A stretch of 63,691 bases of DNA, filler included, from Reclinomonas americana ATCC 50394 (GCA_048213135.1; 7 parts of 5 records of this genome joined end to end with filler, not necessarily neighbours in it), one strand, 5' to 3'. Positions 10,225 to 63,691 are shown, numbered from the whole stretch's first letter. A program made the numbers and translations. The notes: generated by a model from the letters alone, not told the origin.

Positions 10225-10999
10225 ATGTTTGCTCGTTTTGCAGGTGCGTCTCACTGCTTTCCGCAGTTGCATGCAATGCGTGGTGTGCGCTTGTGTGTGT
10301 GCGCGCGCGCGTGTGTGTGTCTCGTTTGCTCATGTTGGATGTCGCACGCAATGGCCCACTCCACACGCTCAGTCTCGCGAATGGTTTGTGTGTGTGTGCG
10401 TGTGAGAGCGAGTGAGTATGATTGCATGCGCTCATTGTGCTTTTTGTTTGCAGGCGTTCTCGGCTGCGGCCGCAGTTTCGTTTGCAGAAAAGAGAGAGAG
10501 AGAGAGTTGTCTTTCGTTGCGCCATGTCCGCGTGCTCACTCGTTGGCTTTCGGTGTGCAGCCCAAGCCGCCAGTCAAGGTGGCGATCACTGGTGCCGCTG
10601 GTCAGATTGGCTACGCGCTGCTCCCGCGCATTGCCAGGTGCGTGTGAGAAAGAGAGAGAGACAAAAGAGAGAGTAACGGTGTGTGTTTGGCAACGATGAG
10701 AACTCTTGTGCGTGTGTGGCACGTGTGCTGTGCACGGTCCGCTTGAACGTCCCGTGTGAGTGACGATACCTAATCTTCTCTCTGAGCCTTTCTCTGCTTC
10801 TTCGTCTTCGCCTTGCATCTATGCGTGCGTGCATTGTGCATCAGTCGCTTACTGCATTGCGTTTTCGTTTTTTTGTAGCGGCCAGCTGCTGGGCGCTGAC
10901 CAGCCGGTCATCCTGCACTGCCTGGAGCGCGCTGAGGCCATGAACGCCATGCGCGGTGTCGAGATGGAGGTGCTCGACGGTGCCTACCCGCTGCTCCGC
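10225..10999 (+). CDS. Malate dehydrogenase, MDH1 (cytosolic-clade) type, with putative presequence (3' partial)
   Basis: Exons 10225-10243, 10373-10383, 10454-10474, 10561-10637, 10879-10999 give [56 protein letters not shown]...GVEMEVLDGAYPLLR; remainder lost at an N gap. Confidence 0.9.
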
Positions 11000-11416
11000 G
11001 TTGCGTCTTCCTCTGTCGTCGTCGTCGTCGCTGATCATCGTCGNNNNNNNNNNNNNNNNNNNNNNNNNNNNNNNNNNNNNNNNNNNNNNNNNNNNNNNNN
11101 NNNNNNNNNNNNNNNNNNNNNNNNNNNNNNNNNNNNNNNNNNNNNNNNNNNNNNNNNNNNNNNNNNNNNNNNNNNNNNNNNNNNNNNNNNNNNNNNNNNN
11201 NNNNNNNNNNNNNNNNNNNNNNNNNNNNNNNNNNNNNNNNNNNNNNNNNNNNNNNNNNNNNNNNNNNNNNNNNNNTGTCTGTCCCGTGACACGGTGAGTT
11301 GGGCAGATCGTTTTCTTTCGCGCCAACTCGGTGCAGTAACCCTTTGAAAAAATAATGCGATCTGCTATACTATCGTGTTTTACATCTACATGCATTCATC
11401 TCTCTTTTCGTTCTCT

Positions 11417-13210
11417 TCATTCTTTCTTTTCCTGCTCGTCGTCACTGGTTGGCAGCTCTGCCATGGAGCCGTCACCAAAGCTCACGTGGCTCAGATGACG
11501 CATGTTCATCTGACTCTTTTCTCGCTGGTCTTGTTGATGCCGGTGGCGGCTGTCTTCGAGTCGCACGATCAGCTCGCGACCCATCTTGTCCCAGCCCACC
11601 AGATGCCGATGTCGCACGTACAGCTCCTCGATGCGTGCGCGCACCACATCGCGCAACTCCTCCACCTGCTTGGCCGTCGGCTCCGGCGTCTGCTTCACTT
11701 GGATCGGCTCGCCCACCACCATGCGCAGCGGGTAGCGGCGGGGGATGGGCAGGTACCAGCGACCAAACGGGAAGATGAGTGCTGTGCGCAGCATGCGCGA
11801 TATCGTCGTAATCCTGTGTCGGAGGGAGGAGGGTGAGGGCGGGGGAAAGAAAAGGCGAGGGAACGGGGAGGGGCGTGAGCGTACCAGCCGCGTCCGGAAC
11901 GGAAGCGGTCCAACGGCTGTGTGTTGCCAAAGTGATAGACCGGCACAATGTCGGCGCCGCACGAGAGAGCCATGCGCAAGTAGCCCTGCGAGGAGCGGTC
12001 AAGCTGTGTGTGGTGGTGGACGAGGATGGGCATAGCGTGCCACCAACCTGGTGGCCAAAGAACACCACCTCCTTGTCGGGCCTGCTCATCATCATCTCGG
12101 CCACACCACCGGGGATCACCTGTGTTCGCAGCAAGTGAGTGAGTCGGAACACGCGGCCCTCGTAAGTGCGCGTGCGTCACGCAACGGCGACATTGGAGCC
12201 GCGATTGAGGTACGAGACGGCGCACGACCACGTGGACTCGATCAGACCGAGCCACCGGTAGATCCACGAGACAATCGGCAAGCGCAGCACCACCGACGCC
12301 GCCAGTCCGACCACGGGCGAGAAGACATCAATCGACTGGTGCGTGGACGCCAGGAACTGCCCCATGGGAAAGACTGCACCACAAGTCGCGTGTGTCAGCT
12401 CAATAGCGCGTGCACGCTGCGTGTGGCACACGACGAATCCGCAGCGCAACTTCCATGCGGCATGTGCACGAGGAGGTATCTGGCATGCAGGTGGTAAGAG
12501 GAATCGAATTGGCACGCACAACAACTCACACGGAGAGAGACCTCTTCTGCGAATCCAGCGCAAAGCCCTCCGGCTGCAATGCACCACAAGTGAACAACAA
12601 CAACAACAACAAACAGGAATACTGGGGGAATAAATCATCGCGCGCCGCGCACTCCACACTCACCAGCACCACCTGGAAGTCAAAGTACTCGCGCCACAGC
12701 TGCCCACCCACATACGCACTCACTCGGCATCAGAGCACAGTGCACCAATCAACCATGAGCAAAGCAGGCGCACCTTCCACAACGACAGTCTCCGAAACGC
12801 CGGCCACGTTCGCATGGGGATCACCGAGGACACAACGATCAGAATCAGAAGCACCAGTGAGCTCCACACCACACCGTACTGCGGAGGCAGGCAGAGAGAG
12901 AGAAAGAGAGAGCAGAGTGAGTGAGTGTGCAAGAGAGTGATTGTCGTCTGATCGCCACTCACCGCGAAGGCGAGCCACGCGAAGAGCACCAGTGGGAGAA
13001 AGAAGGCAGCAGCCAGCATCAGCATAGTGACAATGGCCAGAGCCTCACTGCGAGAGAGCGCAAAGAGAGAATGAGTGTGAGTGAGTGAGTGAGTGAGTGA
13101 GAGTAACAGACAAGTCGCTGACTGCACGCTCACCGCCACCACGGCATCGACGGCATTGGTGGGCACATAGGCCACACATGCTTTCCATGCACACTCGGTT
13201 TGTTGTGCAT
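11417..13210 (-). CDS. Diacylglycerol/monoacylglycerol acyltransferase, DGAT2 family
   Basis: WREYFDF, HMPHGAVFP, VIPGGVAEM, GYLRMALSCGADIVPVYHFGN, VVGEPI motifs and N-terminal TM helices; multi-exon. Confidence 0.85.
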
Positions 13211-13280
13211 CGCTGTCTCTCTCTCTCTCGCGCAAAGAGAGAAAACGCTCGCGGACTGAAAATTGGGCAGAGAAAGAGAA

Positions 13281-15664
<2,384 letters not shown>

Positions 15665-15701
15665 AAGAAGTCTTGTCCTCCGTCCCAGTTCGCGACTCAA
15701 C

Positions 15702-16920
15702 ATGATTCTCAGAGCACTCGTCAGTCGCGCTCTCTTCAGCAGCAATCACAAGCTGGCGCTCGTCAACAAGTCCTTCCTCGTGCCCACACTACGCATCAGT
15801 TCGCGGGAAGATGGCCTCAGCGCACTCGACAAGGTCTCTCACAAGCTGTCTTCCACACACACACACACACACTGCATGATGCATGCTCATCACTTCTCAC
15901 TCGCACACGCAGATTCGTGCCACTGCTGCCTTCTATCGAGGCTCCCCCGTCGTCCTGTTGCGTGCACACACACACCCTTCTCCCCTGTCCTCTCTCCCTC
16001 TCTGACACACACGCATGTCAACAGCGACTATCGACCACCTGCCACACCACCGAGCGATGCAGATGCCACGACACCGGCCGGCACTGCAGAGATGAGTAGC
16101 AGTAGCGAGGAGGTGGCCGACTTTGTGCGCCACATTGCCGACACACTGCGTGGGGAGTGCGAGATGCTGCCGGTGGGAGTCACGCAGGCATCGCGCTACA
16201 GCAAGGCGATTGCGCAGGCCGCACGGTTGCCACTCGTGCGCGAAAACAGTCAGTCGGTGGTCGTTGTCAGTGGCAGCGACCAGCCAGCTGCAGCGCTGTC
16301 CTCTCAGCCCGCCACGCCTCAGCCTCCGCCTCCACCACCGGCACAGGTGCAAGCTGCACCGTTGGAGGCGCTGGTGTGGTCGCAGCCGGTGCGTGGCGGG
16401 CAGGAGGTGTATGCCAAGGACCGCAGCCTGGTGGTCATTGGCCACGTGCATGCGTACGGCGAAGTGCGGGCCGACGGCGACATTCACGTGTACGGCGTGC
16501 TGGAGGGCCAGGCGCACGCGGGGTACGTCGAATCGCCGCCGTTGCCGCCCCGTGTCAGTTCCCTCATACCTGTGTGTGCGCGCGTGTGTGTGTCATAGTC
16601 TGCGCGGCAATCTGAACTGCCGCATCTACGCGGCTGCCTTCAATCCGGAGCTGGTGAGCATCGCCGGCTACTACACCAGCATTGAACCGGAAAAGACGAC
16701 TGCATCGACAACAACGACAACGACGACGAATAATGCAGAGAATGCAGCTGACAGCGACGCTGCAGCAGTGGAGCACGAGGGAGACGGCACGCAGATCGCC
16801 AACAGCGATCTGGTCATGCTACGCTCGTCGCTGCGCAACCGGCCCGTCATGGTGTCGCTAAAGCCCGGTCCGCAAGAGACCGATCACCAGCTCGTGTTCC
16901 ACAGAATGGGCGCTCGGTGA
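15702..16920 (+). CDS. minC: Septum site-determining protein MinC, nucleus-encoded, putatively mitochondrial
   Basis: Exons 15702-15833, 15913-15956, 16025-16522, 16599-16920 (331 aa). N-domain AFYRGSPVVLD...MLPVGV; C-domain QPVRGGQEVYAKDRSLVVIGHV..GEVRADGDIHVYGVLEGQAHAG...IYAAAFNPELVSIAGYY; Arg/Ser-rich acid-free N-terminus. Confidence 0.92.
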
Positions 16921-23022: not shown

Positions 23023-23122
23023 NNNNNNNNNNNNNNNNNNNNNNNNNNNNNNNNNNNNNNNNNNNNTTAATTAATTAANNNNNNNNNNNNNNNNNNNNNN
23101 NNNNNNNNNNNNNNNNNNNNNN

Positions 23123-29224: not shown

Positions 29225-31861
29225 CTACAGTAGACACGCTACCGGGCGGCGCAGCCGGCAAAGCACAGCATGCACACCCAGGACCAGCTGGCCTTGCCCA
29301 TGCAGCCACGCGTCCTCGGTCGCACCGGATCGATGGCAAGCTTGCGGATCGACTCGGGGAATTGTCTGTGAGAAAAGGGAACGTGTAAGTAGGTGCGGTG
29401 GCATGCATGCATGCATGCAGAGAGAGGCGGCGTGTGTGGCGCAACTTGGCCTCCACGTCCACATCGTTCTGCTCCATGTGCAGCATGTTCAAGAACGCCG
29501 GCCACTGGCTCTTCAACTGAGGCAGTTGTACCGACTCGAGAGTGTTGTGGCTGAGCAGCAGTCGCTCCAAGTGCGTCGGCAGGCGACGCAGGTCGAACGT
29601 GCGCAGCTGGTTGTGCGACAGGTTGAGGACGCGCAGTTCGCTGGTCGCCGGTAATTGAGCGGCGTCGAACTTGGTGAGGGAATTGTCGGCCAGCGACAAC
29701 GACAATAGTGCCGCCGGCAGCGCCGAAGGCGTGAACGTCTCGATTCGGTTGCTGCGCAAGTCCAGATGCCGCATGCGCGACGGCAACTCCGACGGCAGCA
29801 CCAAGTCCGCAATGCCATTGGCCGACAAGTGCAACTGCTCGAGCGACTCGGGGAGGGAGCGCAAATCGGCGGATCGAATGCGATTCGACGACAAGTCGAG
29901 CCGACGCAGCGAGCGCATCGACGACAGGTGGAGCAGCGAGGCCTCGGTGAGGCCACACTTGGCCATGCGCAGCGTCACCAACGAGAGCGGCAAGTGGCGC
30001 AGGCTAAAGTCGCGAATCATCTGGTTCTCGCTCACGTCGAGGTACCGCAGCTCCGATGGCAGGCGCGCCGACTCGAAGGTGACGAGGCAATTGTGGTGGA
30101 CATCGAGCAGCCGCAAGCTCTGCGGCAAGAACTCCACTCGCAACTCCGCAATGGCGTTGTAGCCGACAAAGAATGCCTCCAGGCGCTGCAGTTCGGCGAG
30201 TGACCGAATATCCAGTCGCTCGAGTCGGTTGTTGTAGAGCGAGAGCGAGCGCAGGTTCCGTGAGGAAGCCACCTGCTCCAGGTTCACGTTCTCCAAGTGG
30301 TTGTGCGACAGGTCGAGGTGTTGGAGGGCGGGGAGACCGCGCAAGTCGATTGATCTAAGTACAGCAGCAACGATGAGTGAGTGCTAAATCAGGAAGCGAG
30401 AAATGCACTGTGGAGAAACGCAACGTCAGCTGGTTGTGCGACAAGTCGAGGTGCTTGACAGACTGCATCGGCAGCGCCGTCGAGTCGAACTCGGTCAGCA
30501 GGTTGTGCGAAATCACCACTCGTGTCAGGTTCGGCGGCACCAGCGACCGTGTCAGCCGTGTAATGTCGCACTGTGTGAGCTCCAGGGCACGGAGAGCCGG
30601 AGCCAGTGTGCTCAACGGCGTGTGCGCCTCACATGAGGCGTCGAGCAGGAAGCACGGGTCGATGCCGACAGGTCGTCGCCGTGACCACGAGCGGATCGTA
30701 AGCGTGCGCAGACCCGACGGCAGTGGCACATAGGCGTACTGCAGCGCCAGTGGTGGAGGCAGCAGCACGGCCGTGGTGTCGAGCACGCTGTTGGTGCAGC
30801 TGCTGGGTGCCGACGACTGCGGTTGCAGCGTGCCGGCGGCCGGCGTCGCCGGCTCCAGGCACGTCACCTCCTCCACGGAAACCTCGGGGATCTGCATCTC
30901 GCGCATCATCTCGTCCATGAACGAGATGGACGAGGAGCGGCGACGATGGTACTGCGACAGCGAGCGGAACGGTGTCGGTGGTGCGGCGGCCAGTGGATTC
31001 GCAGCCATGGAAGCCGGTGGCGCATTGGTCATCGGAGTCGGACCATTGTCGAGAGCGCCGCCGCCACCACCGGTGGTGGCGATCGGCGTCGACCGCGCCT
31101 CGTCCAGCAACGCACTCAGCTTGTGCGAGCTCTCCGATCGCACCGCAATGTGGAACGCCGTTGGCACATGCGACATGCGCCGCGGGCTGCTGCCGCCCGA
31201 ATCGCTAGAAGTCGTGTCGTCACCGGAGCAACTGGCACACGCACAATGTCAGCACAAGGGCGACACACACACATACACACACACACGCAGAGACGAGTGC
31301 GCAACTCCTTCAGCGGAACACGGAAGGCGGCAAGGCGCGACGGGAAGCGAACATTGGTGCGTGCCACCATGTTCAGCAACTCCTGGTTGAGCGACGGCGA
31401 CTGCTCAAACACTGCACGTGTACACCGAGCGTCAGACACACACACGCGCGCACACACACAGAGCGAGGGCAGCAGAGAGAAAGAGAGAGACGCAACACTG
31501 CACAGTCAACGATTCGATGGCAGGGAAGTGCAAGTGGGCACAGTAGAAGGGTGTCTGAGCTTCGCGCGCATCGCCATCGAAATGAATGAGACCACGCTCA
31601 AAGGCCGCACACAGGTCACGACAGGTGCGCCACAGTCGCTTGAAGTCACGCACTCGCAGGAACGAGCACACCAGTGCCAGAGAGCCTTCGCCAATCATGT
31701 CGGCGAGGCGCGGACCTCCAGTCACCAGTTCATGCTCATGCTCCGAGTGATCTGTGTCGACAGTCAGCACACGTGTCACACTGTCTCTCTCACACAGTCT
31801 GCTCAGGGATCGTACCTCCTCGGGCGCTGAGAATGAGCGCAGGTGTCACTGCCGAGTCCAT
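29225..31861 (-). CDS. Leucine-rich repeat protein with N-terminal F-box-like motif
   Basis: More than a dozen LxxLxLSxNxL repeats with LP linkers (about 29460-30600); N-terminal LALVCSFLRVRDFKRLWRTCRDL is F-box-like; ends approximate. Confidence 0.75.
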
Positions 31862-32393: not shown

Positions 32394-35300
32394 TCACAAG
32401 CTTCGACGTGCGTCTGCGTGCGATATCAATCGGTGTCGGAGCGATCGCTGTTCTTCTTTGGCGCCAGAGACGGCAGCTGGTCCAGTGGTACGCACCTGCA
32501 TACGTGCCATGTACACAAAATTAAGCATCGGTGAGCTGCATGCACGCCTGCTGGAGAACGCAACTGCACTTTCATGTCAGACACGGACTCCAGCAACTCG
32601 GCCGAGTTGGAGCCCTTGCGCGTGATCGAGAAGCGACTGCCGGCAAGTATCGCGTGTGGTCAGCACTCATCGCTGTGCTGTTGTGTGAACTTGCAGAGCA
32701 CATATGTACGCACCGTACGCGTTTAGGCGTGGCATCTCCACCGACACCCGTGACTCCTTCTGTGTGCCCAAGCGCCAGCATTGCATATGACGACTGGATG
32801 CGCTCGAGGATGGAGTCCTGTGCAGAGGCACTCGACAGCGTGGGATCGACCTCCAGTCGAGCTCGTTCGCGCGTCACGTATTTCTCGTATTCTCTTCCGT
32901 ACGACTGCACATGCACGCACGCACAAGTGAATCAAACGACGACAGTCCGCCGGTTCAAAAGACACCAGCAGCACTCACCTCGAGAATGAAGGCAATCAGC
33001 ACACTGGAGGGCGCACAGAAGAGTTGAGTGACAATGACGACAGGAATGTGAACGCAGGCGGGAGACGCAACTTGATGAACACCACCACCATGATGAGCCA
33101 CCAGATGATAAAGTAGATTCGTGCAGCGCGGTTCGTCACGGCCACATAGCCGGCCACGATGACCTGCCAGTTGTTGACCTATATATACGCGGATGGATGT
33201 GAGCGACGTCACTACGCTGGCAAGTCTTCCTCACGACGCGTAAACGCACGACTTGGAGCTCGAAGAGAACAACTAATAGCACAAACAAATCAGTGAGTGC
33301 GCAAAAAATAGGAAGAGCAAACGCAGCGGCAAGACGCCTGACGCACCAAGAGCAGACGGCAAGTCATTCATGTTGTTCGAGAAGTATTTGGCTTGCACGA
33401 ATGGGTTGTCGGGCGTCAGGGCCGGATTGCCCTGCGATCACTATCGGTGAGACGGTGCAAGCGAGACGACGGTGGCTGTGGCGACACACTTCGTAAATCA
33501 GTCCACCAAAGACTGCAGAAAAGAAGAGCGTGTTAACTAACAAGCCAGCAGACGAGAAACATGGAGAACGATGTGAGCGTAACTGCCAATGCCGATAATG
33601 GCGTAGGCATAGTATACACCCTGCAGCAACAAATGAGGGCGCGAAACCACCATTTCCACATGCGGAGCGAGGCGACGCAACAAACACGACGGCGCCATAC
33701 GGCCCNNNNNNNNNNNNNNNNNNNNNNNNNNNNNNNNNNNNNNNNNNNNTTAATTAATTAANNNNNNNNNNNNNNNNNNNNNNNNNNNNNNNNNNNNNNN
33801 NNNNNCGGAGAACGCGCAGCATAGATGACGCGAGACACACCGAGAATGTTTTGTAGTACAATGGCCTCCGGCTCCTTGGTGGTGACACCACACTGATAGT
33901 CCAGGTTGGATGTGGCGTAGTGAGCACTGACCATCAGATTGATGGTGTAGGCCACCAGGAACACGTCGACAATGGCGTCGAACCACCTGTGGGAAGCTGG
34001 TTGAACACCACCTGCTTATTCGACCAGCGCTCAACTTGACCGTATGCACGCAACTGCGACTTGATGAAGCGAATGAATGCCTGATTTCCCTTGGTGTGGT
34101 AGATGCATCGGAAGAGCCACTCGAAGAACGTCTGGCTCTCCCACGCCGACTTGACCTTGTAGCTCAACACCTCCAGGAACTCGGCAAACTCCTCGCGAGG
34201 TACACACGACCATCACGTTAAGGAGCCAACAAGTCACGAATGTACGCACACACTGCCTCGCACTGACGTGCACTGCGCACAAAGGATATTCAAAAAGCCA
34301 TTGCCGCTGCGGTTGAGCGCGCTGAATGTGATGTCGATCTTCTCCAGCGGGTAGTGCGAGCGGACAACAATCATCGCGTTACGGAAGGTAACATAGTCGA
34401 TGACCTCCACCGGCGCCACGGACTGTGCGTCTTCCAGGTCGCCGGCCGAGGCAGCACTCTGTGGTGACATGAGTCCCGAACCCGACGCGCCCGTGCCAGC
34501 TCCAACTAGCGCAGCCGCACTGCTACCGGCAGCCGGTGTCATTTCCGGCGATGTGGTGTCATTCTCGGTGCCTGTGCAACGACGACACACGAGATGAGTG
34601 CATGGTACGCGCGTCATCAATCAGAGGCACATACCATCTTGTTGACCCTGTTGATCGTGTTGCCGGGCGCTTGCGCTATTTGCCGGCGACGTGACGGGCA
34701 TTGTGCGAACCGTGCACAGCAGATCAAAGGCCATGGACAGCGCAGCAGTCTTCCAGTAAATGATGCGGGATCCGGCACGTCCAGCATGCTCACGGTAGCG
34801 CGAGTAGACAGACGCAAGCACTGCCAAGGAAGCACACTGTTTTAGGGACAGATCATCAGGAGCGTGACAGTTTGCGGCGGAGGCGTCGCGTACCGAGGGC
34901 CATCAGCATGTACAAGCAGATGATAAGGAAGGCGATAAAGATCAAGACATTCCATCGGCTGCGGGAACAACAAACTGTCGGTACAGAGCGAGTAGATTGC
35001 ACATAGACACATACAACAGCGACGCACTTGTCATCGTATGCTGGCATCATGATAGTACACAGCGCGGCGAGGCGTCAGTCAAGGAAACCACAGCAGAGGA
35101 TATCAACAACAACAACAACAATGGTGACAGCAAGGATATTCTGGAAAATTCGCTGTGGTGAGGGTCACCAGCATGTTGAACCAGGAGTCCCAGAAGCCGG
35201 CAAACATCAGACATCCTTGATTGCTAATCGTGCAAGAATACAGTGATCAGCCGACTGCAAACTCAGACGATGGGAGTTGAGAGCTCACCTGGCCTCGAAG

Positions 35301-37649: not shown

Positions 37650-40600
37650 TTAGGAGATGGAGTGTGGGGTGACACGGGATCGTGTCAGCAAACCTTCGCT
37701 TCCGCCACCAAAAAGATCGTCGTCGGCTGCTGCTGCTGCTGAGGCGGCTACTGTTGTGCTTGCTGCCGGCTTGGATGCGTCGTCGTCGTCGCCAGAGCCA
37801 AACAAATCGTCGTCTTCGTCCTCGGCATCGAGCACCTTGCGCCGCTTCACCGCCGGTGTGGATTCCTCCTCGCCCACATCCGACAGCCTGTCCTCGGTCT
37901 CGACCTCGTCGGCCTCGTCGCGTGGTCGCTTGCCGCGAATCTTGCGCTTACCAACCTTGTTCTTGCGCTTCTTCGGGCTGTCCGAGTCGCTGTCGCCTGA
38001 GTCCTCGGCCTCCTCACTCATCTCCTCGTCTCCTTCCTCCTCCTCGTCCTCCTCATCGCTGTTGCGTTGACGGTGAGAATGCAGGGAAATCGCTCGCCAT
38101 CCCACCCTCCCATCTACTCACCTGGCTGCTCGGCTCTTCTTCTTCTTCTTTTTCTTGTCGGCCGACTTGGCGGCCGCCTTCTTCTTCTTGCCCTTAGCCT
38201 TCTTGGAGCCGTGTCGCCAGTCAATCTGACCGTCGTCTTCCTCCTCTTCCTCTTCTTCCTCCTCCTCTTCGTCCACCTTGCGCTTGCGTGGCGCCTTCTT
38301 GCCACCACCACCGCCACCGGCCGAGCCTCGCGCTCGCGGAGCTCCACCTGCACTGCTCTTCTTCTTCTTCTTCTTGCCGCCGCCAGAGCCGTCGCTGTCG
38401 TCTGAGTTGGCAAGCAACATTAGACACGCGCGTCATTATCTCGCCCACACACACACACAATCGTCTCACTGACCCCCTCCACTCACCATCCTTGATGATG
38501 GTCGACTTCCACGTGCTCTGCACCTGGCGGAAGCGCTCTCGATCGGCTTCAGCTCGTCGTCGCATCTCCTCTTCGGCGGCAATCTGCCGCTGCTTTTCCT
38601 CTTCCTGCAGCGAATGATGAGTGCAAATCACAAAAATAGGTGAATAAAGACGCACAAACCTCACGGGCTCGCATCTGCTGCAGACGCGCTTCCAGCTCCT
38701 CGCGCTTGGAGTCTCGCTGCGCCTTGGCCTCCTCCTCCTGTCGACGCACCGAGTCCACCATTTTCTCCAACTTGCCGCGCCACTCGGCACATTCGTGCGA
38801 CTTGTTCTTCGCCAGCTGATGCAACGACGTGTGACGTTCGGTCCAGTACGCACCCACCACTGCGGCGTCACGACTCGGATTGTCCTTCAACTCCTCCGCC
38901 TTGCGTTCCACAAAGCGGAAGATGCTGCGCCCCACGGCCATTCACACCTATCAGAGATGCTGGCGACGCGGGAGCAAAGGGGAAAACCAAACGCAACTGG
39001 TGTGCCGAGGTCATAATGTCGCGGATCTTGATGACGGTTGCGGCGCTGGTGATGATCGAGCGCACCTTGTCCACACACATTTGCTCCTGGATCAGTGCAA
39101 TGTCGAACCACGTCTGCAGGTCCTCCGGTCGCAGGTGGGCGACCTTTTGCAGCGTCGACAGCGCCGTTTCCAGGTGACCGGCACAGTAGTGGGCGCGGGC
39201 CAAGTACTTCAAGATTTCCACGTCCGAGTTGTGCGATACCTTCAAGCATGTCTCGTACTGCAACAACAGATAAGTGGCAACCTGATGCGAGGAAAGGAGG
39301 GGGAATAGAGCAGTAGCGTACCAACTTGATGGCGTCGGCGTACCGCTTGTACGACACGTCAATGTGCGCCAGATTCAGCAGCACCTCGGGGATGATCTTG
39401 CCGCCCTCGCGCACCTGTGCGCGTGTCTCGTGTCAAAACAACAACACGCAAACAGCGCTATGGAGTACACTCTCCAGCAAACCTTCTGGAAGATCTCACG
39501 TGCGTCGTCCAGGAAGCCACCGTCGGCCAACAGCACACCGAGCGCATTGGCGGCGTACACATTGTCGGGATCCACAAGGAGCGCCCGATCAAAGAACTTG
39601 ACGGCGTGCGCACGGTATTTCTCGTGCTGCGGCACCGCATCCACCAAGTGATGAGCAACACACTCGCATCACGCAGCAACCGATGATTGTTGTCAGCTAC
39701 AGACCTTCTTCTTGAGCACATCGATGCACGAGTTCTCGTAAAAGATCTTGCCAAGCGACAGCAGGGCCATCATGTCGCGCTGGTTCATGCCGTTGAGAAT
39801 GTCCTCAAAGTGACCCTGCGCCAGGCTCCACTCTTCGCGCATCATGTGCAACTGGCCCTGCAGGGAGCGCACATCGGGGTTGTCCTTGGCAATGGCTGTG
39901 GATCATTGCAAGTCGTGAGTGGAACGACAGCGTGCTGCGGAGGAGGAAATACGACGCACATGCTGCTACAGAGAACCACCGACCAGCCATCCGGTGATTG
40001 CCCGTGTCGCGTGCCATGATGCCGAGCCGCAGGTATGCTGTGCCAGAGAAAAAAGAGTGAAAAGACCTGGCTACGGATAAAGCACATCGCGCATCTCACC
40101 GTCCAGGTAGCACGGGTGGCTCTTCAGCAGCTCCAGATACATCTCGCGCGCCTCGTCGGCGCGGTGCTTGTCCTCCATCAGTCGTGCCATATTGTAGCGA
40201 ATGGTGATCTGTGGTGCGCGAGAGCCAAACTGAGTCTCATGCTCCGTCAAATAACGCAGAGAGCTCCTCCACACACACAACTTCCATTTCCTTGAGGCGA
40301 TCCTGCGTGGCCGCTAGAGCATTGATGTCGGGAAGCGAAGCGAGAGCGGCGTCACTGGCCTCGTTGACGGTGTCGATGAGCTGCTTCACTTCATCAGCAG
40401 CACGCAGGGTCAACTGGAGAGCCGTCCGATGCGAGCGCTCTGCATGGTCCAACAGCGACATGCTCGAGTTGATGTGCTCATCGTCTACATCGCCCACATC
40501 GTGGTGCACAAACTGGAAGTGCTGCGCATCCGAATCGGAGCGCAGTGCTGGAATGGAATGACAGCAGGTGAGCCCTTCCACGACACAAACAAACATATCA

Positions 40601-41830: not shown

Positions 41831-43700
41831 NAACTCATCAGCGTGGATGTCCACCTTTTGACCGTCGAGTGTCACAGTGACTGCGCGTGCATCGCGCGCG
41901 GACGAGGAGGCTAATGAAGAGGAGGCAGCAGCCGCAGCAGTGGAGGAGGAGGAAGAGGAAGACAAGGAGGAGGTGCCGATGCGAGAGCCCGAGGAGTGCC
42001 GCATGCTCGAGGCCGACCCCAGGCGATCATAGGAGAAGAGGTCGGCGTCCACCTCCATCTCGAAAATCTCAATACGATTGACTTCACGTGACAACGACGG
42101 AAGACAACTCGTCGCTGGGGAACTTCACACTGTGCTTGTGTGCAGCACTGCATATGTTCATAATACAATCTCAATCGTGCGATTGGTGAAGAGGACGGCG
42201 CTAAAGATCTTCTTGGCGGCTGGTCCGATCGCGGGGTTGCCTGCAAGTGCGCGCGAAGGTAGGTGGAAGGAAGAGATGGCTTGCTTGCGTGCTACGTGCG
42301 CCGTGTACGAACCACTGATGTCGAGGTGGCGCAGTGAATCGGTAGCTTGCATGAGGAAGCTGGCGCAGCCAAGGGCGCCGGGTCGGCCAATCCCGTTGGC
42401 TGTGTGGCGATCGGGTGAGCTTTTCTCTCTCGCGGTGTCTAGATCTTCGAGAACACACGCCCTGCTTACCTGCGACACTGAGAGAGCGCAAGCCGCATGC
42501 TGGCGACGCGGCCACCTCGACCATCGACTGCACACCATCGTCGCCAATGGCGTTGTGACTGAGATTGAGTCGGTGGAGAGTGGAGTTGTGGGCCAGCGCG
42601 TGGGAGAGCGTGACGGCCGATCTGGTGGACATGCGAGTTACTGTGGACAGCAGGGGAGTGAGGGAACGGAGTCGGCGAGGAACAGCACGAGGCAAACAAA
42701 AGTACATGTCAAATCGAGCGTCTCGAGCGTGCGGTTGTGGCGCAGCGCTTCTGCCAGCAGCGTGACGCCGTCGTCGGCGAGTGGATTTCGACCACAGTCG
42801 AGGTAGCGCAGCGGTGTCGACGCGAGAAGCACGGTGGACAGCGCCCGTGCACCCGTGCTGGTAATGGAGTTGACTGGCGGGGGGTGGCGGAGGAGTGAGC
42901 GATCACATCACAATCAGAGAGACGCGGCAGAGGGTACAGCCACACACACGAAACAATTGAGGCTGAGCGACGTGAGCGTGCTGTTCACCGACAGCGCCGC
43001 GCCCAACACCTCCATGCCCGCGTCGGCGATCTCATTGCCGGCCAAACTCAGCATGCGAATGCCACCGCCACCGTCACCTCCAACAACATCGTCACTCATC
43101 ATCTCCACATCCTCCTGTTCACGCACCAACCACAGCGCCACGATCGCCGAGCCACCGTCTCCCAGTCCATTCTGACTGAGATTGAGGGACTCGAGCGAGC
43201 GACTGGCCCGCACTCCCTCCAGCAGCAACGTGTTCAAGTGCTCTCCATTCTGCCGCATCAGCGCACTCTTGCCAATGTCCAACGAGCGCAGTCGACAGTT
43301 CCCATCGCGCAGCGCATCCCCCAACAATCGCGACGTGTCGCGCGGTGGCACCCCCGCACCCGCCATACTCAGCCCGCGCACTGCACTCTTGCCCGACCGC
43401 ACCGCTGCCGCCAAGAAACGCAGTCCATCCGCACCCATGGCATTGCGCGACACGTCGACACTGGTCACCTCCGACAGCTCCGCCTTCAACGCCGTGGCCA
43501 GCCGGTGCACGCCAGTGGCAGTGAGCGCATTGTCGGCGAGATTCAGTGTACGCAGAGCACACGGCATCTGCATCAGTGTCGCCAGCTCGGCATCACAGAG
43601 TCGCGACGAGTGCGCGTCGACACGTCGCACTCCTGGAAAGAGCTGACACAGACGGCCCAACTCGCCACGATGTCGCGCTGTGCTCACCTGTACATTGCTC
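41831..43700 (-). CDS. Ribonuclease-inhibitor-like LRR protein (NLRC3/CARMIL-type repeats)
   Basis: 28-aa repeats such as LESLNLSQNGLGDGG, LSLAGNEIADAG, LAEALRHNRTLETLDL, LHRLNLSHNAIGDDG; ends uncertain. Confidence 0.8.
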
Positions 43701-52007: not shown

Positions 52008-52107
52008 NNNNNNNNNNNNNNNNNNNNNNNNNNNNNNNNNNNNNNNNNNNNTTAATTAATTAANNNNNNNNNNNNNNNNNNNNNNNNNNNNNNNNNNNNN
52101 NNNNNNN

Positions 52108-53553
52108 AAGAGCCCATGGTCACCAGACCGCCAACGCCCATGCCGCCGCCACCGCCCACGCCACCGCCGCCCATCATGTGCACCCCACCGCCGCCGCCGC
52201 CGCCGCCGATACCCGTCATGTGCGAGTGCTCAAACATGCGGATGCCGCCGGAGCCGACACGTGCGCCAAACACCGGCACACCGCTTGACATGGCCGTGGC
52301 CATGCTGTCGACGCCCATCATGACGGCGTCGCCGCCGCCGCCACCGCCGCCGCCAGCAACGACTGCCGCCGGCACTCCGCTGCCGCCACCACTCAACATT
52401 GAGGCCACCGAAAACATGCTGCGGTCGGCCATTTGCAGTGAATGTACTGGGGGTGGCAGTGGTGGCGCGGGCGGCTCGAGTGAATATGGCGGCCGGTGGT
52501 GGTCGACAAACGACACACGACGGTTCATCTGTCGCGGCATCGGCGGCAGCGTATCCGACGTGTGCGAGCTGTGCCGCGAGTGCGACAGATTGCTGCGGCG
52601 GGACGACGACGAGTGCTCAGGCGAGTAGTCGCCACCAAAACCCTCAAAGGAACCCACACTGGTGTGCGACACGGGCGACACGGCGTCCACCGAGCGATTC
52701 GGCGCCAGCAAGTGACCACCGTTGCGAAGGCCGGCCAGCGTCACTGCAAGAAACACGGTAAGCAACGCACAGTGGTGAGGAGGAGGCGAGGAGAAGACGC
52801 AACCGTGATCGGTGTGATGACGCGAGTGCTGGCGCGGGCGTGTGCGGCCCGCAGTCTCCCCCGACGACGACGACGACACCGATCCGCGCGACGCCTGCTG
52901 ACTGGTGCCGCTGTACGCGACCACCGTCTCATCCAGCGTATACTTGCGCGAGTGTCCACCTGCACGATGCTGCTGCTGCTGNNNNNNNNNNNNNNNNNNN
53001 NNNNNNNNNNNNNNNNNNNNNNNNNNNNNNNNNNNNNNNNNNNNNNNNNNNNNNNNNNNNNNNNNNNNNNNNNNNNNNNNNNNNNNNNNNNNNNNNNNNN
53101 NNNNNNNNNNNNNNNNNNNNNNNNNNNNNNNNNNNNNNNNNNNNNNNNNNCCCAAGGGGAACGCATTAAAGTGGTGCGCCTTCTCTCCGTCATCCTGCAT
53201 GGTGACGTCGGCCACGTGCGCATTGGCGCTGCGGGCAAACTTGCCGCGCGCAAACAGGAACGCCTCCGGCACGCTGGTGCGGCGACCGAGGCCCAGACCA
53301 AGCATGCCACCGCGACCATCGCCACCGATGCCTCCGCCGCCACCACCAACGCCACCACCGCCGGGGCCACCGAGACCCATCATCATACCGCCGTACGGCG
53401 ACGAGAGTGGTGGCGTACCTGGTGGCGTGGCGGCGCCGGGCATGTGCATCAGCACACTGCCCTGATGCATGTCGCTGCCGCTGACCACACTGCTGGCCGT
53501 GCTGCCGGCGTACATGGGCGTGGTGCGGCCGGAGGACATGTCGAGCGAGGGCG
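52108..53553 (-). CDS. Low-complexity Gly/Met/Ser/His-rich hypothetical protein fragment
   Basis: Long coding-like frame interrupted by gaps and one likely intron near 52745-52805; no domain recognised. Confidence 0.45.
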
Positions 53554-55131: not shown

Positions 55132-57770
55132 CTATTCGTCGTCGGGCACCTCCGTTTTCGCCGTCGCCCCGAGGTTGATGGCTGGCATCTCCGCGCTGTC
55201 GCCGTGGTGGCTGTGATCACACGTCTCGTCGTGCACATGGCCGGCGTGGTGGTGCGGGTGATCGCACGGTCCGTCATGCGGGGCATGGTGGTGGTGACCG
55301 TGGCCGTGGCCGTGGCCGTGGCCGTGATGGTGGTGACCGTGGTCGTGGTCATGGTCGTGGTCGTGGTCGTGGTCGCACGGTCCATCGTGCGGGTGGTGGT
55401 GGTGGTGGTGACCACCGTGGCTGTGTCCGTGCTGATGATGCGGATGATCGCACGGCCCGTCGTGCGGGTGGTGGTGATGCTGCTGCTGTTCTGCGCGTCG
55501 CGCCAGGTGATCCAACATGGCCATGGTGCGCTCGCGGTGCTGTCGGACGTGGAAGCTGCAGATGCCCTCGCGACCGGGTTCGTCTAAAGGAGAAGAAGAA
55601 AAACAAAGGTCAGTTCTCTCACGCAAGAGGGAGATAGGGAAAGGCGCGCAACTGCTGGTCACCACCAGCTGCATGGGTGTCTTTCGCACGACGTCGGCGA
55701 GCAGCAGGCCCGGCTCCACGTCGCGCTCGCACGGAGTGCGCTTCTCCTTGCGCTTGCCGTCCTTCTCGGTCAGGCGCACGTCGATGATGCCGCACTTGGG
55801 AATGGCGGCGAAACTGTGAGGCGGGGGAAGTGAGGGAGAGGAGAGAGAGAGGACAGAAGGAAGGGGGAGGGGCAAGAGAGAGACGGAGAGAGAGATGGGA
55901 GGAAGAGAGAGATGAAGCACGATAACGAGAAGAGTATCGGCGGGCGAAAGGAGCGGCGACTGTGGCACATTGACTGACGAAGATGGCTGTGGCACAAGGA
56001 GGCGAAAGAAGAAGAGAGAAAAGGTGGGAGCTGTGTGCACACGAAAGTGAGTGTTTGGAGGACGACGGGCAGAGGCAGGAGTGCTGCAGAAATCAAGAGA
56101 TGAGAGCGGAAGGCGAGAGCAATTGACGAAGGTGGCTGCGGCACAAGGAGGCGAAAGAAGAAGAGAGAGAAGGTGGGAGCTGTGCACAACTGTGTGCACA
56201 TGAGAGCGAGGGTTGGAGGGCGACGAGCAGAGGGCTGGAGTGCAGCAGAAAGCAGGAGAGATGAGAGCGAAAGGTGAGAGAGAGAACAAAAAGAGCAACT
56301 GACGACGACGGCAGCTCACAGAAGGTGAGGGACAAAGTACAAAGACGGGTGTCGCAGCAGTGGGAACTGCAAGACTGAGCATTGGAGGATGATGAACGAC
56401 GGAGTGCTGCAGTGAAACTAAAGACGGCGAGGAAAAGAGAAACTGACAAAGGCGACTGCAGCGCAGAGAATGCAAGAGTAGAAGAAGAAGAAGAAGAAGA
56501 AGAAGAAAGAGAGGTGTTGCAACAGTAGGAGCAGTACCTAAACAAGAGAGTGAGAGAGGCGCAGTGCGAGGAAATCTCGGTGAATGCTGCATGCAGTGCG
56601 ATCGATCAGACAATACATCGCAGGCAGACAGCAGATAGAGCACACACGAACTTGCACAGAGAGAGAAAGAGAGAGAGCAGCAACTGACACAGGAGACTGC
56701 AGCACAGTGACGCGAAAAAAANNNNNNNNNNNNNNNNNNNNCAACAGATAGAGTGCGAGAGTGCGAGGAATGCATGCAATGATCGATCAGACAATACGTC
56801 GCAGCAGAGCAGACACCTTGCACACGCAGAAAGAGAGAGAGAGAGAGAGAGAGTGAGAGTGAGAGAGAGAGAGAGAGAAGACAGAGAGAACGNNNNNNNN
56901 NNNNNNNNNNNNNNNNNNNNNNNNNNNNNNNNNNNNNNNNNNNNNNNNNNNNNNNNNNNNNNNNNNNNNNNNNNNNNNNNNNNNNNNNNNNNNNNNNNNN
57001 NNNNNNNNNNNNNNNNNNNNNNNNNNNNNNNNNNNNNNNNNNNNNNNNNNNNNNNNNNNNNNNNNNNNNNNNNNNNNNNNNNNNNNNNNNNNNNNNNNNN
57101 NNNNNNNNNNNNNNNNNNNNNNNNNNNNNNNNNNNNNNNNNNNNNNNNNNNNNNNNNNNNNNNNNNNNNNNNNNNNNNNNNNNNNNNNNNNNNNNNNNNN
57201 NNNNNNNNNNNNNNNNNNNNNNNNNNNNNNNNNNNNNNNNNNNNNNNNNNNNNNNNNNNNNNNNNNNNNNNNNNNNNNNNNNNNNNNNNNNNNNNNNNNN
57301 NNNNNNNNNNNNNNNNNNNNNNNNNNNNNNNNNNNNNNNNNNNNNNNNNNNNNNNNNNNNNNNNNNNNNNNNNNNNNNNNNNNNNNNNNNNNNNNNNNNN
57401 NNNNNNNNNNNNNNNNNNNNNNNNNNNNNNNNNNNNNNNNNNNNNNNNNNNNNNNNNNNNNNNNNNNNNNNNNNNNNNNNNNNNNNACACAAACTCAACG
57501 CATTCGGGTTTTGCTTCTCCAACTGCGCCTTCTCCTTCATCAACATCGACAACAGCGCATCCTCATCGTCAGGCAACGCTTTCACCGCCTTTTTGCCTGC
57601 TTTTCCTCCCTGCTTGCCTCCCTTTGCTCCTGCACCTGCTCCTGCTCCTAATGAGACCGCACCACCAGTCTCCTGCTGCTGCTTGTTGCCTTTGCCTGTG
57701 CACACGCGCGTGAGAGAGAGAGAGAGACGAGTGGAGAGAAGAGTAGAAAAGGTGAGAGACCTTTGCCCAT
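55132..57770 (-). CDS. Hypothetical protein with Cys/His motif and His-rich metal-binding tail
   Basis: MGKGKGNK...DDEDALLSMLMKEKAQLEKQ, then ...PKCG...TPC...GICSFH..., then 3x HDGPCDH, (HD)n, (HG)n and HVHDETCDH; stop at 55132-55134. The long intron contains gaps. Confidence 0.6.
55955..56200. repeat. Degenerate direct repeats in a long purine-rich intron
   Basis: ggcacaaggaggcgaaagaagaagagaga(a/g)aaggtgggagctgtg occurs at about 55991 and 56140; a second pair (gatcgatcagacaatac) lies at about 56600 and 56781. Confidence 0.7.
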
Positions 57771-58221: not shown

Positions 58222-58522
58222 ATGGCAAGTGGGAGCGGAAGCAGCGCTGATTACCTGAGTGGGCCCAAGCTGCGCGCGTGGACCAAGGAGGATCTGAAGA
58301 CGTTCAGCAAGGAGCACCCTGAGGTGTGTTTTCTTTGCATAAAACGTGGCGGCCATTTCGCACCTCTCACTCGTTTGTTTGTTTGTTGTGCAGAGTGCGC
58401 GGCAGTTGAACACGTTGAAGACGACGGGTGCGTTTTGTGCGGCGACGGGCACGCTCAGCTCGTTTGCAGTGGCGCGCTCGTTTTGGCGAGTGACTCACAA
58501 GTTGCGTGTGATGCAATGAGAG

Positions 58523-58623: not shown

Positions 58624-58723
58624 NNNNNNNNNNNNNNNNNNNNNNNNNNNNNNNNNNNNNNNNNNNNTTAATTAATTAANNNNNNNNNNNNNNNNNNNNN
58701 NNNNNNNNNNNNNNNNNNNNNNN

Positions 58724-60658: not shown

Positions 60659-61345
60659 ATGCTCATCCACGCCCTCCGACGCGCTCTCCCCACACTGTGC
60701 ACCGCCGTTCGACGCCGATCAGCGGCCGTCCTGTCATCATCGTCATCCGATCCGACAATGAACAGCGCCGCTCACCTCGACCTCCTCTCACGCGCCCAGT
60801 GGCGCACCTGGCTGCAGGCCAACCACTCCACCTCCACCGGCATCTGGGCGATCTTCCCCAAGAAAACCTGCGTCCGACCCGGCGAGATCACCTACGACGA
60901 TCTCATCGAGGAGGCACTGTGCTTTGGGTGGATCGACAGTCGCCCCGGCAAGGTCGACGATCGCCGCACAAAGCTGTACCTGTGCCCACGCAAGAGCAAC
61001 GGACGGAGCGGATGGGCGGCGACCAACAAGGCCCGCGTGGAGCGACTTCGCGCCGAGGGTCTCATGACGGATGCCGGTGAGCGTGTCATACAGCGGGCGA
61101 TCGCCGATGGATCGTGGGCGCTGCTGGACAGCAGTGAAGCGGCGCAGGAGCCCGACGATCTGCGACACGCGTTGAGCGTGGAGTACCCGGGCGCGTTGCA
61201 GCACTGGGAGGCCTTCCCGCGCGGAGTCCGCAAAGCAATTCTGCAGTGGATTGCGTTGGCGGTGAAGGCGGAGACGAGGAGAGCGCGCGTGCAACAGACG
61301 GCGCAACTGGCGCAGCAGAACATCCGCGCCAATCAGTACCAGAAG
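60659..61345 (+). CDS. Exon 1: presequence plus YdeI/OmpD-associated (OmdA) family domain
   Basis: RAQWRTWLQANH...YDDLIEEALCFGWIDS...PRK...GWAATNKARVERLRAEGLMTDAG...PDDLRHAL...RKAILQWIALAVKAETRRARV are hallmark bacterial YdeI motifs; intronless; second ATG at 60758. Confidence 0.88.
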
Positions 61346-61421
61346 GTGGGCGGGGGGAGTCGACATCGTCGAGTCGATATCGACCTCATTTCGTTTTTGT
61401 GTGTGTTTTGAGTGAGCGCAG

Positions 61422-63691
61422 GCAAGCATGGACGTGGACGAGGTGAGCAACAGTGTGTGAGCGAGTCAGAGAGCACTGTTCTCACTCTTGTGTGCAGACA
61501 AAGAAGAAGACTGGGCGCAAGCGTGTGGCCGAGCAAGACGAAGAAGAAGAGGAGGATTCTCCTCAACAGAAGCGCCCTCGTGCTGCGGTCAGTGTGTGTG
61601 TATGTGTATGCATAGTGTGCGTAACATGCATCTCAACGTCTCTCCTTGTGCAGAAGCGAGGCAAGAAGGTTGCGGAGTGAAGGAGTGAGAGAGATGCTTT
61701 TCAAGTGACTCTCATTGTGCTGTGTGTGTGTGTGTGCGCGCACGCAGGCTGCTGCAGCGGCAGAGTCGGAGGACGACGAGGAAGAGGAGGAGGAGGAGGC
61801 AGTGAAGAAGCCCAAGGTGTTGTTGATGCGTTTCGTGTGTTGTCTCTTGTCGGAAAAATGTGACACTCTCTGCAGGCCGGCAAGCGAGCTGCAAAGCAGG
61901 GCAAGCGCGCCAAGGTGTGTGATGTGCGTTTTGTAGTGCTGCTCTTGTGCTTCGCTGAGCGATTGTGTCGCAGGCGGCTGCCTCCTCGGACGATGACGAC
62001 GATGATGAGGACTATGCAGAGAAGGGCAAGCGAGGCAAGCGTGGTGCCAAGGTACTCGTGTACGCGCACGCACTCTTCTTGCCGGCGTGACTGACAAACA
62101 TGCAGGCCGACGGTGACGAGGTGATGGCCAAACCGGTGGGGAAGCGAGGCAAGCGTGGAGCGGCCAAAAAGAAGCAAGAGGAGGAGGAGGATGAGAGTGG
62201 CGGTGACGACGACGACGACGACGCGGGACCCAGTTCCGGTCGTGCGGTCAGCTCGTCGTGCAAGGCGGATCTGCAGTGGAAGGAGGTGACCGACATTCCT
62301 AGCAAGTGGGAGGATCTCATCCGCGCTCCGCTGTCGCCCAAGCAGATGAAGAAACTGCGGCCGACTGTGCGTTGGCGTGCCAGCTCGTCTCCGCGTTTGT
62401 TGTTGACGGCTGATTGTGTCTCCTGTCGGCAGATCTACACGCGACCCGCCCGCGATTTCATGCTTCCAGTGCCTTCGTTTGACAAGTTGCGTGCGTGCTG
62501 CTGGTTGTGGTGCGTATGTTTCACTGAAAGTGGAGTGCATGCGTGTGTGTGCAGGGACTCGGAACTGAAGAGTTTCGGCTCTCTGTTGCTCCCCGTGCTG
62601 CTGCATGTGCCACTCACTCACCCCCTCCTGTCACCAACAGTTATCACCTACAATGTCAACTCGTTGCGCGGCATGATGGTGTGTGCCTCGCGGTCTCCTG
62701 TGTGTGTTTCGAGTCACTCACCTGCACCCGCAGACCAAGCGAAAGGCCGAGTTCCTGGAGCTGGTGGCGGAGGAGGATCCAGGTTGGGTGGTGGTGTGGT
62801 TGCTCGCCGCAAGTGTATGCGCGGTCGTTGTTCTCATGGTTGCTGCCACCGCAGACATTTTGTGCCTGCAAGAGACCAAGTTGAAAACTGGCGATGTCAC
62901 CCAAGAATTGCGCAACCTGCTCCCCGGTTACACGTCGTTGCGTGCTGCGCCTGCCATCTTCAAACCACACGTGATTGCGGGTCTGATCGTCTTACAGGTA
63001 CTGGAGCTGCAGCACGACGACGCTCGGTTACGCGGGCACAGCGTTGCGTCTCGCACTGTCCGTGTGTTGCCTCCCGTGCTATCGACTCATCGCCGTGCTG
63101 CCAGTGTGTTCACCCGCATCAATCCGCAGCACGTTTCGTACTCGTTCAAGTCTAAGCACGACGGGGAAGGGCGTTTCATTCACCTCGAATTCGGCGGCTT
63201 CCATCTCATGTTGCGTCTTGTTTCTGAGCGTGACCACACGTCCCATCCGTCTTTCACTGCGTCTGCATTCTCCGACAGCAACACCTACGGTGCGGCGCAC
63301 AGCTCCACCGCCCTCTGTTGTCTCACCACGCACTCATGTTCCCTCTCCTCCGATTGCAGTGCCGAACGCGGGTCAGGGCCTCAAACGCCTCAGCTACCGC
63401 GTCAATTCGTGGGACCCAGACTTGTTTGACTTTATGAAGGAGCTCGACAAGACCAAGCCCGTCGTGTGGACCGGTGATCTCAACGTTTCGTAGTTTCTCT
63501 TCCTCAGTCTTCTCCTTCTCCTTCTTTCTCTCCTCCTTGAGAACTGTGGGGGCGCTGTAGATGTGTGGCTTCGGTCTTCCTCACAACGTGTGGTTTGACG
63601 ACGCTGCAGGTGGCTCACACGGAGATTGACATTTTCTCGCCAGAGACCAACGTTTCGTGCTGCTTCTCTTTGTCAACAATGTTATGCGTTG
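61422..63691 (+). CDS. APEX1: AP endonuclease (APE1/ExoIII family) with K/D/E-rich N-terminal linker (3' partial); probably the same gene as the YdeI exon
   Basis: Spliced [66 protein letters not shown]; 17 short exons including 11-, 15-, 17- and 21-nt ones. Confidence 0.92.

Follow-up and report, generated by a model that had tools for sequence, protein, structure and literature searches.

The question raised by the stretch of DNA considered here, a window of 63,691 nucleotides (nt) of Reclinomonas americana ATCC 50394 (GCA_048213135.1), is whether a substantial proportion of its introns begin with a 5' splice site (donor) whose signal lies one base further into the intron than usual. The window is eukaryotic and GC-rich (approximately 56%); its genes are closely spaced and interrupted by numerous short introns, and its main donor class follows the consensus (A/C)AG/GTGCGTG. 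A preliminary description had listed 20 positions at which introns appeared to start with GTTGCG, GTTTCG or, in one instance, GTTGGG, and had proposed that a shifted register serves in this lineage as a mainstream second donor class. Employing a combined approach of protein homology, gene prediction and analysis of the predicted pairing with U1 small nuclear RNA (snRNA), we find GTTGCGT, GTTTCGT and the related GTTGGGT to be well supported by sequence as genuine U2-type GT-AG 5' splice sites. We further hold, with moderate confidence, that this abundant second class is the main signal read one nucleotide further in, through docking of the recognition machinery in a register shifted by +1.

Results

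Intron starts established by protein homology

All 20 positions carry the motif attributed to them on the strand given, and seven of them (13910, 14970, 62783, 62937, 63043, 63210 and 63485, all on the plus strand) were fixed exactly as intron starts by homology on both sides of the junction. These seven lie in a gene of the GH1 (beta-glucosidase) family and in the APE1-type endonuclease domain of a second gene, for each of which single-exon searches yielded one close relative, termed P0083 for GH1 and P0082 for APE1. The relatives were placed on the genome with a protein-to-genome spliced aligner written for this analysis, in which GT..AG was the only splice rule. At all seven junctions removal of the GT..AG intron restores the reading frame, with gap-free alignment to P0082 or P0083 or with contiguous Pfam coordinates. 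When any donor dinucleotide was permitted, the aligner returned the identical 14 positions in APE1 and GH1, all of them GT, and barring single variant donors lowered the alignment score by between 5 and 86 units, the weakest cases being 62937 and 63485.

Seven introns were placed in the GH1 gene by means of P0083, one of which begins with GTTTCGT at 14970..14976 (+). Its junction reads FNHY/TSKYV with no insertion or deletion, forbidding the site costs 86 score units, and the Pfam GH1 profile is matched at positions 251-295 before the intron and from position 296 onward after it. The second GH1 site, GTTGCGT at 13910..13916 (+), lies outside P0083 and was fixed by the Pfam GH1 profile together with frame reading, exon 13836-13907 covering profile positions 82-105 and the exon that follows, 13981-14046, resuming contiguously at 107/108.

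Alignment of P0082 to the APE1 domain likewise placed seven introns, five of which have variant starts and show no insertions or deletions at their junctions. These are GTTGGGT at 62783..62789 (+; 21 units lost when forbidden), GTTGCGT at 62937..62943 (+; modest support), 63043..63049 (+; 23 units) and 63210..63216 (+; 19 units), and GTTTCGT at 63485..63491 (+; 5 units), the last of which yields the junction TGDLN/VA. The donor at 63210 precedes an exon of only 11 nt (63279-63289), the P0082 alignment reading ...FHL/iNTY/vPNAGQGL across it. The intron start at 62937 forms part of a tandem with a further GT situated 3 nt upstream (62934/62937, +; GTCGTTGCGT), the second of the two being preferred by 5 units, which is equivalent to one residue; alternative use of these tandem donors is possible.

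Two further positions among the 20 are supported by homology on one side. At GTTGCGT, 11000..11006 (+), in the malate dehydrogenase (MDH) gene, the match to solved structures of the enzyme extends no further than query residue 40, which is the last codon before the motif, the downstream side falling within a gap of undetermined bases (N) at 11044-11275. At GTTGCGT, 33065..33071 (-), in a two-pore channel gene, the exon 33074-33178 aligns with residues 623-657 of TPC3 (6v1q_A) through its last residue, and the site was also predicted by each of the two gene finders described below, donor-blind and trained. A solved-structure search with another exon of the channel gene (33860-33985, downstream of the donor at 34054) found no relative. 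The 11 weak matches of a 73-residue channel exon gave only poor alignments at the locus (scores 64-119) and were discarded as not homologous. A metagenome scan with a GH1 exon returned two distant loci, 38% and 57% identical over short stretches, which were not used.

The exactly homology-fixed junctions, variant and ordinary together, number 15, of which six are GTT[G/T]CG and one is GTTGGGT, a proportion that is not an estimate of frequency as the genes concerned were those flagged in the preliminary description. The gene in which the APE1 domain follows a YdeI-like domain had been described as containing eight variant donors out of 18, or nine with GTTGGGT; our recount from the gene model and the P0082 alignment agrees, and seven of the 18 donors are homology-fixed.

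Type of the introns

The CTSAY-type branch motif was detected in 84% of 25 variant-class introns versus 83% of 53 main-class introns, at a median distance from the acceptor of 23 nt and 21 nt, respectively. Median intron length is 69 nt in the variant class versus 72 nt in the main class, and acceptor score and acceptor triplet are also alike, CAG being present in 23 of the 25 variant-class introns. Signals of U12-type introns (the RTATCCTT 5' splice site and the TCCTTRAC branch site) were not found in the variant class, and the only two RTATCCTT motifs of the window belong to separate AT-AC introns. Membership of an introner or repeat-intron family was considered and rejected, as an all-vs-all blastn comparison of the 25 and 53 introns produced matches only in (GT)n, (GA)n and (CT)n.

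The two AT-AC introns, which are likely to be of the U12 type, lie on the minus strand in the two-pore channel gene, running downward from 35139 and from 34289. Each begins with the exact sequence ATATCCTT, carries a branch-like motif (TTCCTTGAC or CTCCTTAAC) 55-66 nt into the intron and ends in ...GTGTAC, and their removal restores the frame (...TTANFP-D-IMMPAY and ...GNGFL-T-REEFAEFLEVL). Their presence implies that the organism possesses a minor spliceosome.

Frequency of the variant class

Counts of the motifs in the window exceed expectation under dinucleotide shuffling. GTTGCGT occurs 26 times (14.4 ± 4.1 expected), GTTTCGT 13 times (6.6 ± 2.7 expected) and GTGCGT 114 times (74.8 ± 7.9 expected), these numbers being reached in 1, 1 and 0 of 100 shuffles, respectively. 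The donors listed in this study account for 16 of the 26 GTTGCGT copies and 5 of the 13 GTTTCGT copies, and such counts alone are only suggestive as evidence for donors.

Introns were also predicted with a donor-blind gene finder, in which a three-periodic coding model, intron length, the acceptor and the dinucleotide GT were the only information; an initial finder based on codons only was too noisy for use. In its first form the donor-blind finder predicted 82 introns, with GTGCGT used nine times versus 1.22 expected and GTTGCG six times versus 0.74 expected (P = 1.2e-4). With trained coding and acceptor models, again without a donor model, GTTGCG remained the second commonest donor (12-13 uses, versus 19-21 for GTGCGT). 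Among the 12 permutations of GT followed by T, G, C and G, donor calls fell on 21 of 114 copies of GTGCGT and 16 of 69 copies of GTTGCG (23%), as opposed to 0-6% for the other ten. GTTNCG accounted for 15/135, 11/80, 15/115, 11/73 and 23/202 predicted introns under five filters, so that the class comprises approximately 11-15% of filtered predicted introns, with confidence limits of roughly 6-25% and in sets that include false calls. Known miscalls of the gene finder are the site at 63027 and the two AT-AC introns, while the homology-proven donors 13910, 62937 and 63043 were missed by the trained model.

Base profile of the variant class

Base profiles were compared between 27 variant donors, comprising 19 from the preliminary description (GTTGGGT at 62783 being omitted) and eight added here, and 53 main-class donors with G at +5 that were identical in both gene-finder runs and passed the filter. 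The preliminary description had contrasted ordinary donors, often with an exonic G at -1 and with T at +6, with variant donors mostly lacking that G and usually carrying T at +7, and the profiles bear this contrast out. G at -1 is present in 40 of 53 main-class donors and in 2 of 27 variant donors (P = 3e-9), while T occupies +6 in 62% of the former and +7 in 21 of 27 of the latter. In non-donor copies of the same hexamer T at +7 is present in only 14 of 56 (P = 1e-5).

The remaining positions follow the same pattern. In the main class +3 is G in 62%, T in 19% and A in 9% of donors, and the +4 position of the variant class (G 78%, T 22%) resembles it; the G at +8 of variant donors (37%) resembles the main-class G at +7 (47%), and on the exon side A at -1, found in 12 of 27 variant donors versus 3 of 53 main-class donors (P = 7e-5), matches the A at -2 of the main class (42%). 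Between -2 and +8, displacing the main profile by one base therefore yields that of the variant class, with the U at +2 as the sole exception. The proposal that the main motif has slid one nucleotide into the intron is thereby substantiated for the whole profile, including the exon side.

Discussion

Pairing with U1 and the proposed mechanism

Pairing was assessed against the 5' end of U1 as printed in PMC4856993, the standard end being AUACUUACCUG. The 27 variant donors form on average 5.11 Watson-Crick pairs in the shifted register versus 2.96 in the canonical one, while the 53 main-class donors form 5.75 canonical versus 2.19 shifted pairs. The variant class thus bears the signature of shifted-register sites, with G at +6, no G at +5 and more pairs in the +1 register, although the shifted helix with standard U1 contains two interruptions.

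In the mechanism that we put forward, the exon-final G of the main signal would become the first base of the intron, and a U in place of the normal +1 G would provide the GU that is obligatory. All other preferred bases, on the exon and intron sides alike, would lie one position later. The machinery that recognises the main class would then dock in the +1-shifted register, beginning with the 5' end of U1 and probably followed by the ACAGAGA box of U6. The predicted pairs are A-1:U10, G+1:C9, U+3:A7, G+4 with position 6, G+6:C4, U+7:A3 and G+8.U2, with U+2 left unpaired opposite C8, and cleavage would be fixed by the catalytic core at the only available GU. A lineage-specific factor, be it U1 positions 5-6 that match G-C at +3/+4, a modification, or proteins of the U1C or Luc7 type, probably makes this register workable, since standard U1 would bind the variant sites only very weakly.

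Several observations weigh against this interpretation. The six homology-fixed GTT[G/T]CG donors carry C (five) or T (one) at -1 and never A, and the exon-side preference for A consequently derives from the less certain sites. G at -1 shows no significant depletion relative to non-donor copies of the motif (2/27 vs 8/56), so that the difference from the main class is a loss of the usual enrichment for this base and not active avoidance. Nearest-neighbour energies with standard U1 average -0.26 (canonical), -0.62 (shifted) and -0.49 kcal/mol (bulged) for the variant class, and a value of -4 kcal/mol or better is attained by 1 of 27 variant donors versus 40 of 53 main-class donors, pseudouridines and proteins lying outside this model; with duplex energies so close to zero, simple shifted pairing with an ordinary U1 is insufficient on paper. 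Eleven of the 20 listed sites are predicted by ab initio models only, and the trained gene model learned the variant class from its own output. The class is also spread very unevenly, supplying in the YdeI-APE1 gene 8 of 18 donors against a background of 13% (P ~0.001), a clustering that a pure recognition model leaves unexplained, and the sample is a single 64-kb window. The proposal of a shifted-register second donor class is supported in part, as regards a mainstream class with a displaced profile; pairing in that register with an ordinary U1 is predicted to be thermodynamically negligible (mean -0.6 kcal/mol).

A broader version of the +1-shifted reading, which we regard as doubtful, holds that the major spliceosome of this lineage routinely operates in two registers, its U1 5' end (positions 5-6), a modification or a protein partner having co-evolved with GUGCGU and U6 engaging one base late. 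If this were true, a displaced helix with U+2 opposite C8 would serve more than one in ten introns, and the choice of register and the choice of cleavage site would be naturally uncoupled on a genome-wide scale.

Alternative explanations

The likeliest alternative, although we consider it unlikely, is a dedicated or co-evolved snRNA, that is, a U1 5' end altered at positions 5-6, to which both classes would bind well, or a second U1 or U6 paralogue that reads GUUGCGU. The near absence of a duplex between the variant class and the standard U1 end agrees with it, as does the main class itself, whose preference for C or T at +4 (45% and 30%) and scarcity of A at +3 (9%) are unlike selection by two pseudouridines. 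A hypothetical U1 end complementary to the GUGCGU consensus would pair with the variant class in the shifted register at -6.2 kcal/mol, this being the best register for 25 of 27 donors with 21 of 27 at -4 kcal/mol or below, and with the main class at -8.9 kcal/mol; these values are a prediction and not evidence. Against such an snRNA, other GC-rich algae with GTGCGT donors, as far as is known, retain the standard U1 end. Furthermore, PMC13326754 describes the U1 5' end as strictly conserved in Fritillaria despite 95% of its introns being non-canonical. The same idea was nonetheless raised by Irimia and Roy for the GTGCGTG donors of Ostreococcus, as given in the available portion of PMC2483917.

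In a bulged-U arrangement, U1 would pair normally at G+1 while U+2 or U+3 is bulged and U+3 to U+7 pair in the manner of the main-class positions +2 to +6. We judge this improbable. It would retain the G+1:C8 pair, it fits the intron-side profile from +3 to +8 as well as a shift does, and the register exists in humans, where it is predicted for 68 of 201,541 5' splice sites (PMC4856993). The exon side should, however, then remain canonical and enriched for G at -1 and A at -2, and the bulged register is never the best one with standard U1 (0/27) and is best for only 2 of 27 donors with the hypothetical matched end. The low frequency of G at -1 (2/27 vs 40/53), together with an exon-side profile that has moved as well, favours a shift of the whole register over a bulged U.

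A further explanation, to which we attach an equally small probability, is that donors in this genome are degenerate, short intron-defined introns requiring GT alone and GTTGCG arising from the composition of introns with their GT- and GC-rich repeats. There is indeed heterogeneity, with donors such as GTACAC, GTATAC and GTACTC homology-fixed or predicted and approximately 30% of predicted donors outside both classes, many of which are possibly false calls. However, the ten other permutations of the same bases are called as donors at 0-6% as opposed to 23% for GTTGCG, T at +7 is present in 78% of donors versus 25% of non-donor copies, and composition cannot account for an exon-side preference that has moved by one base. 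An artefact (GTGCGT with a spurious T, mis-called exon boundaries or a mobile introner family), as might be feared from a draft assembly of stitched scaffolds with many gaps and from a gene finder that mis-called some introns, is very improbable, for an extra intronic T would leave the last base of the exon unchanged and yet G at -1 drops from 75% to 7%, seven boundaries are homology-fixed without insertions or deletions, and the 25 variant introns have only simple repeats in common and an ordinary median length.

Relation to known splice sites

The closest counterpart to the proposed +1-shifted docking is the human shifted-register 5' splice site, a published special case (Roca and Krainer 2009) that is described in PMC4856993. 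In both, the GU is extended by a U at +3, G is absent from +5, the consensus lies one position late, the exon-side preference is displaced and cleavage occurs at the GU. Human sites of this kind are a tiny minority, whereas the class described here accounts for approximately 11-15% of predicted introns and, in one gene, for 8 of 18 donors; the motif that is shifted is the local GUGCGU consensus rather than GUAAGU, and the pairing predicted with standard U1 is much weaker than in the human examples. All validated non-canonical registers in humans together amount to 1.5% of 201,541 sites (PMC4856993). Sites with a bulge at +2/+3 (Roca et al. 2012; Tan et al. 2016, PMC4856993) also have one extra U after the GU but predict a normal exon side, in contrast to the present class.

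As regards the main class, the available portions of two papers on Mamiellophyceae give canonical donors of the form AG/GTGCGT(G) (Irimia and Roy 2008, PMC2483917; Verhelst et al. 2013, PMC3879977), comparable to the G/GTGCGTG donors and the CTGAC-type branch motif found here. Judged from the same portions, Mamiellophyceae are intron-poor outside one AT-rich region, in which introns are AT-rich and devoid of a branch motif, and their branch sites lie 43-52 nt from the acceptor; the genes described here, in contrast, are intron-dense, with introns of approximately 55% GC and a branch motif approximately 21-23 nt from the CAG. Of the other lineages compared, Andalucia has few introns and Plasmodiophora has introns of 55 ± 7 nt. 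Those portions, supplementary figures being outside their scope, make no mention of a GTTGCG donor class. Larvacean tunicates (PMC13326754) offer a similar case, in that an entire lineage breaks the customary rules for 5' splice sites although its spliceosome is still of the U2 type, and the authors of that paper do not exclude a shifted U1 register. Larvaceans have, however, lost the GT and AG dinucleotides themselves; the introns described here retain GT-AG, and what moves is only the register of the signal around it. No description of a mainstream shifted or GTTGCG donor class in any lineage was found in the body of open-access literature searched, supplementary files being outside the scope of that search.

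The variant donors would accordingly represent an abundant version of a phenomenon hitherto known as rare, its reality being well supported by sequence and homology and its mechanism being one that we infer. Human shifted and bulged registers have been curiosities, studied one minigene at a time. If approximately one intron in eight truly carries a displaced signal, this organism would offer hundreds to thousands of natural test cases, which would inform the coupling between U1 binding, the hand-over to U6 and the choice of cleavage site. Such cases would also test whether the near-invariant 5' end of U1 can co-evolve with a divergent consensus, a question raised in 2008 for GTGCGTG donors in the portion of PMC2483917 referred to above. 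On a practical level, gene finders with a single donor model will mis-annotate genes of this kind, the trained model employed here having itself missed three homology-proven donors.

Other donor sites and features of the window

The remaining donors were placed by gene prediction. In the two-pore channel gene, on the minus strand, GTTGCGT at 34048..34054 and GTTGCGA at 36004..36010 are predicted ab initio only, and GTTGCGT at 36380..36386 is predicted by the trained model only. Both ab initio models call GTTGCGC at 55646..55652 (-), GTTTCGT at 10475..10481 (+) in the N-terminal part of the MDH gene and GTTGCGT at 15957..15963 (+) in the N-terminal part of a MinC gene. A weak, ab initio only prediction is GTTGCGT at 58501..58507 (+), whose predicted acceptor is followed after 4 nt by a scaffold linker.

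In the YdeI-APE1 gene, GTTGCGG at 61669..61675 (+) is an ab initio only prediction within the low-complexity coding sequence of a Lys/Glu-rich linker. A 17-nt exon (62555-62571) is predicted between GTTGCGT at 62486..62492 (+) and GTTTCGG at 62572..62578 (+), both called ab initio. The P0082 alignment passes over this micro-exon and does not resolve the first junction; at the second, the reading ...ELK/IITYNVN fits P0082 (..VKVVAWNVN), although the aligner chose otherwise. The two micro-exons of the APE1 gene are this predicted one of 17 nt and the homology-fixed one of 11 nt that encodes iNTY. At GTTTCGT, 63652..63658 (+), homology to P0082 fades and the window ends before any acceptor.

Eight donors were added to the 20 of the preliminary description, all on the minus strand. 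The donor-blind finder placed GTTGCGT at 30418..30424 between two long exons of an LRR gene, with coding scores of 87 and 114 bits, and, under the strict filter, GTTGCGT at 31490..31496 and, in a TPR-protein gene, at 38991..38997. GTTTCGT at 42948..42954 in an LRR gene and GTTGCGC at 29439..29445 and 31299..31305 were called by both models, while GTTGCGT at 52797..52803 and, in a gene for a DGAT2-like acyltransferase, at 12179..12185 were called by the trained model only.

Other donors without G at +5 (GTACAC, GTATAC, GTACTC, GTACCT and GTACTT) occur at 14277, 14684 and 62052 (+) and at 26035, 5384 and 42705 (-). An exonic AG precedes four of these six, and two are homology-fixed in the GH1 gene.

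The window contains 5969 N and six 100-nt linkers (9704-9803, 23023-23122, 33706-33805, 41732-41831, 52008-52107 and 58624-58723), each composed of 44 N, the six-frame stop spacer TTAATTAATTAA and 44 N. It is thus a pseudomolecule of at least seven stitched scaffolds, the order of which appears syntenic as linkers are spanned by two genes, one for the two-pore channel and one for a kinase. No snRNA genes (Rfam models at gathering thresholds) and no transfer RNA genes (ARAGORN) were found in the window.

Pfam analysis of open frames and single exons identified MDH, the DGAT2-like acyltransferase, GH1, MinC, thioredoxin, TPR proteins, LRR proteins and a YdeI-like domain followed by an APE1-type endonuclease, while the two-pore channel gene was recognised through its homology to the solved TPC3 structure. 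The G+C content at third codon positions (GC3) is 78%, with NCG and CTG codons favoured. The best solved relative of the MDH is that of Arabidopsis, and the APE1 of a relative resembles green-algal SAP-APE1 clusters.

In the YdeI-APE1 gene, the YdeI/OmdA-like domain (60725-61345, +) lies upstream of the APE1-type domain (62433-63691, +) in one open chain, the two being connected through a linker rich in Lys, Glu and Asp. A protein search with the YdeI exon listed 80 matches, none of them the protein encoded in the window itself, of which the nearest are at most 55% identical and bear bacterial-type annotations; the gene may have arisen by fusion with a domain of bacterial type. Only approximately 80 nt (15660-15743, +) separate the GH1 gene from MinC, a nuclear gene that contains introns. 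The C-terminal exon of MinC is most similar to proteobacterial MinC clusters, which hints at a mitochondrial Min system. Finally, a gene segment with a weakly EGF_CA-like exon is present in three copies at approximately 1.5-kb spacing (~46970-52010, +) in a part of the window that is richer in AT and riddled with gaps, and the introns of the three copies are near-identical, with donors at 47803/47960, 49221/49389 and 50751/50918.

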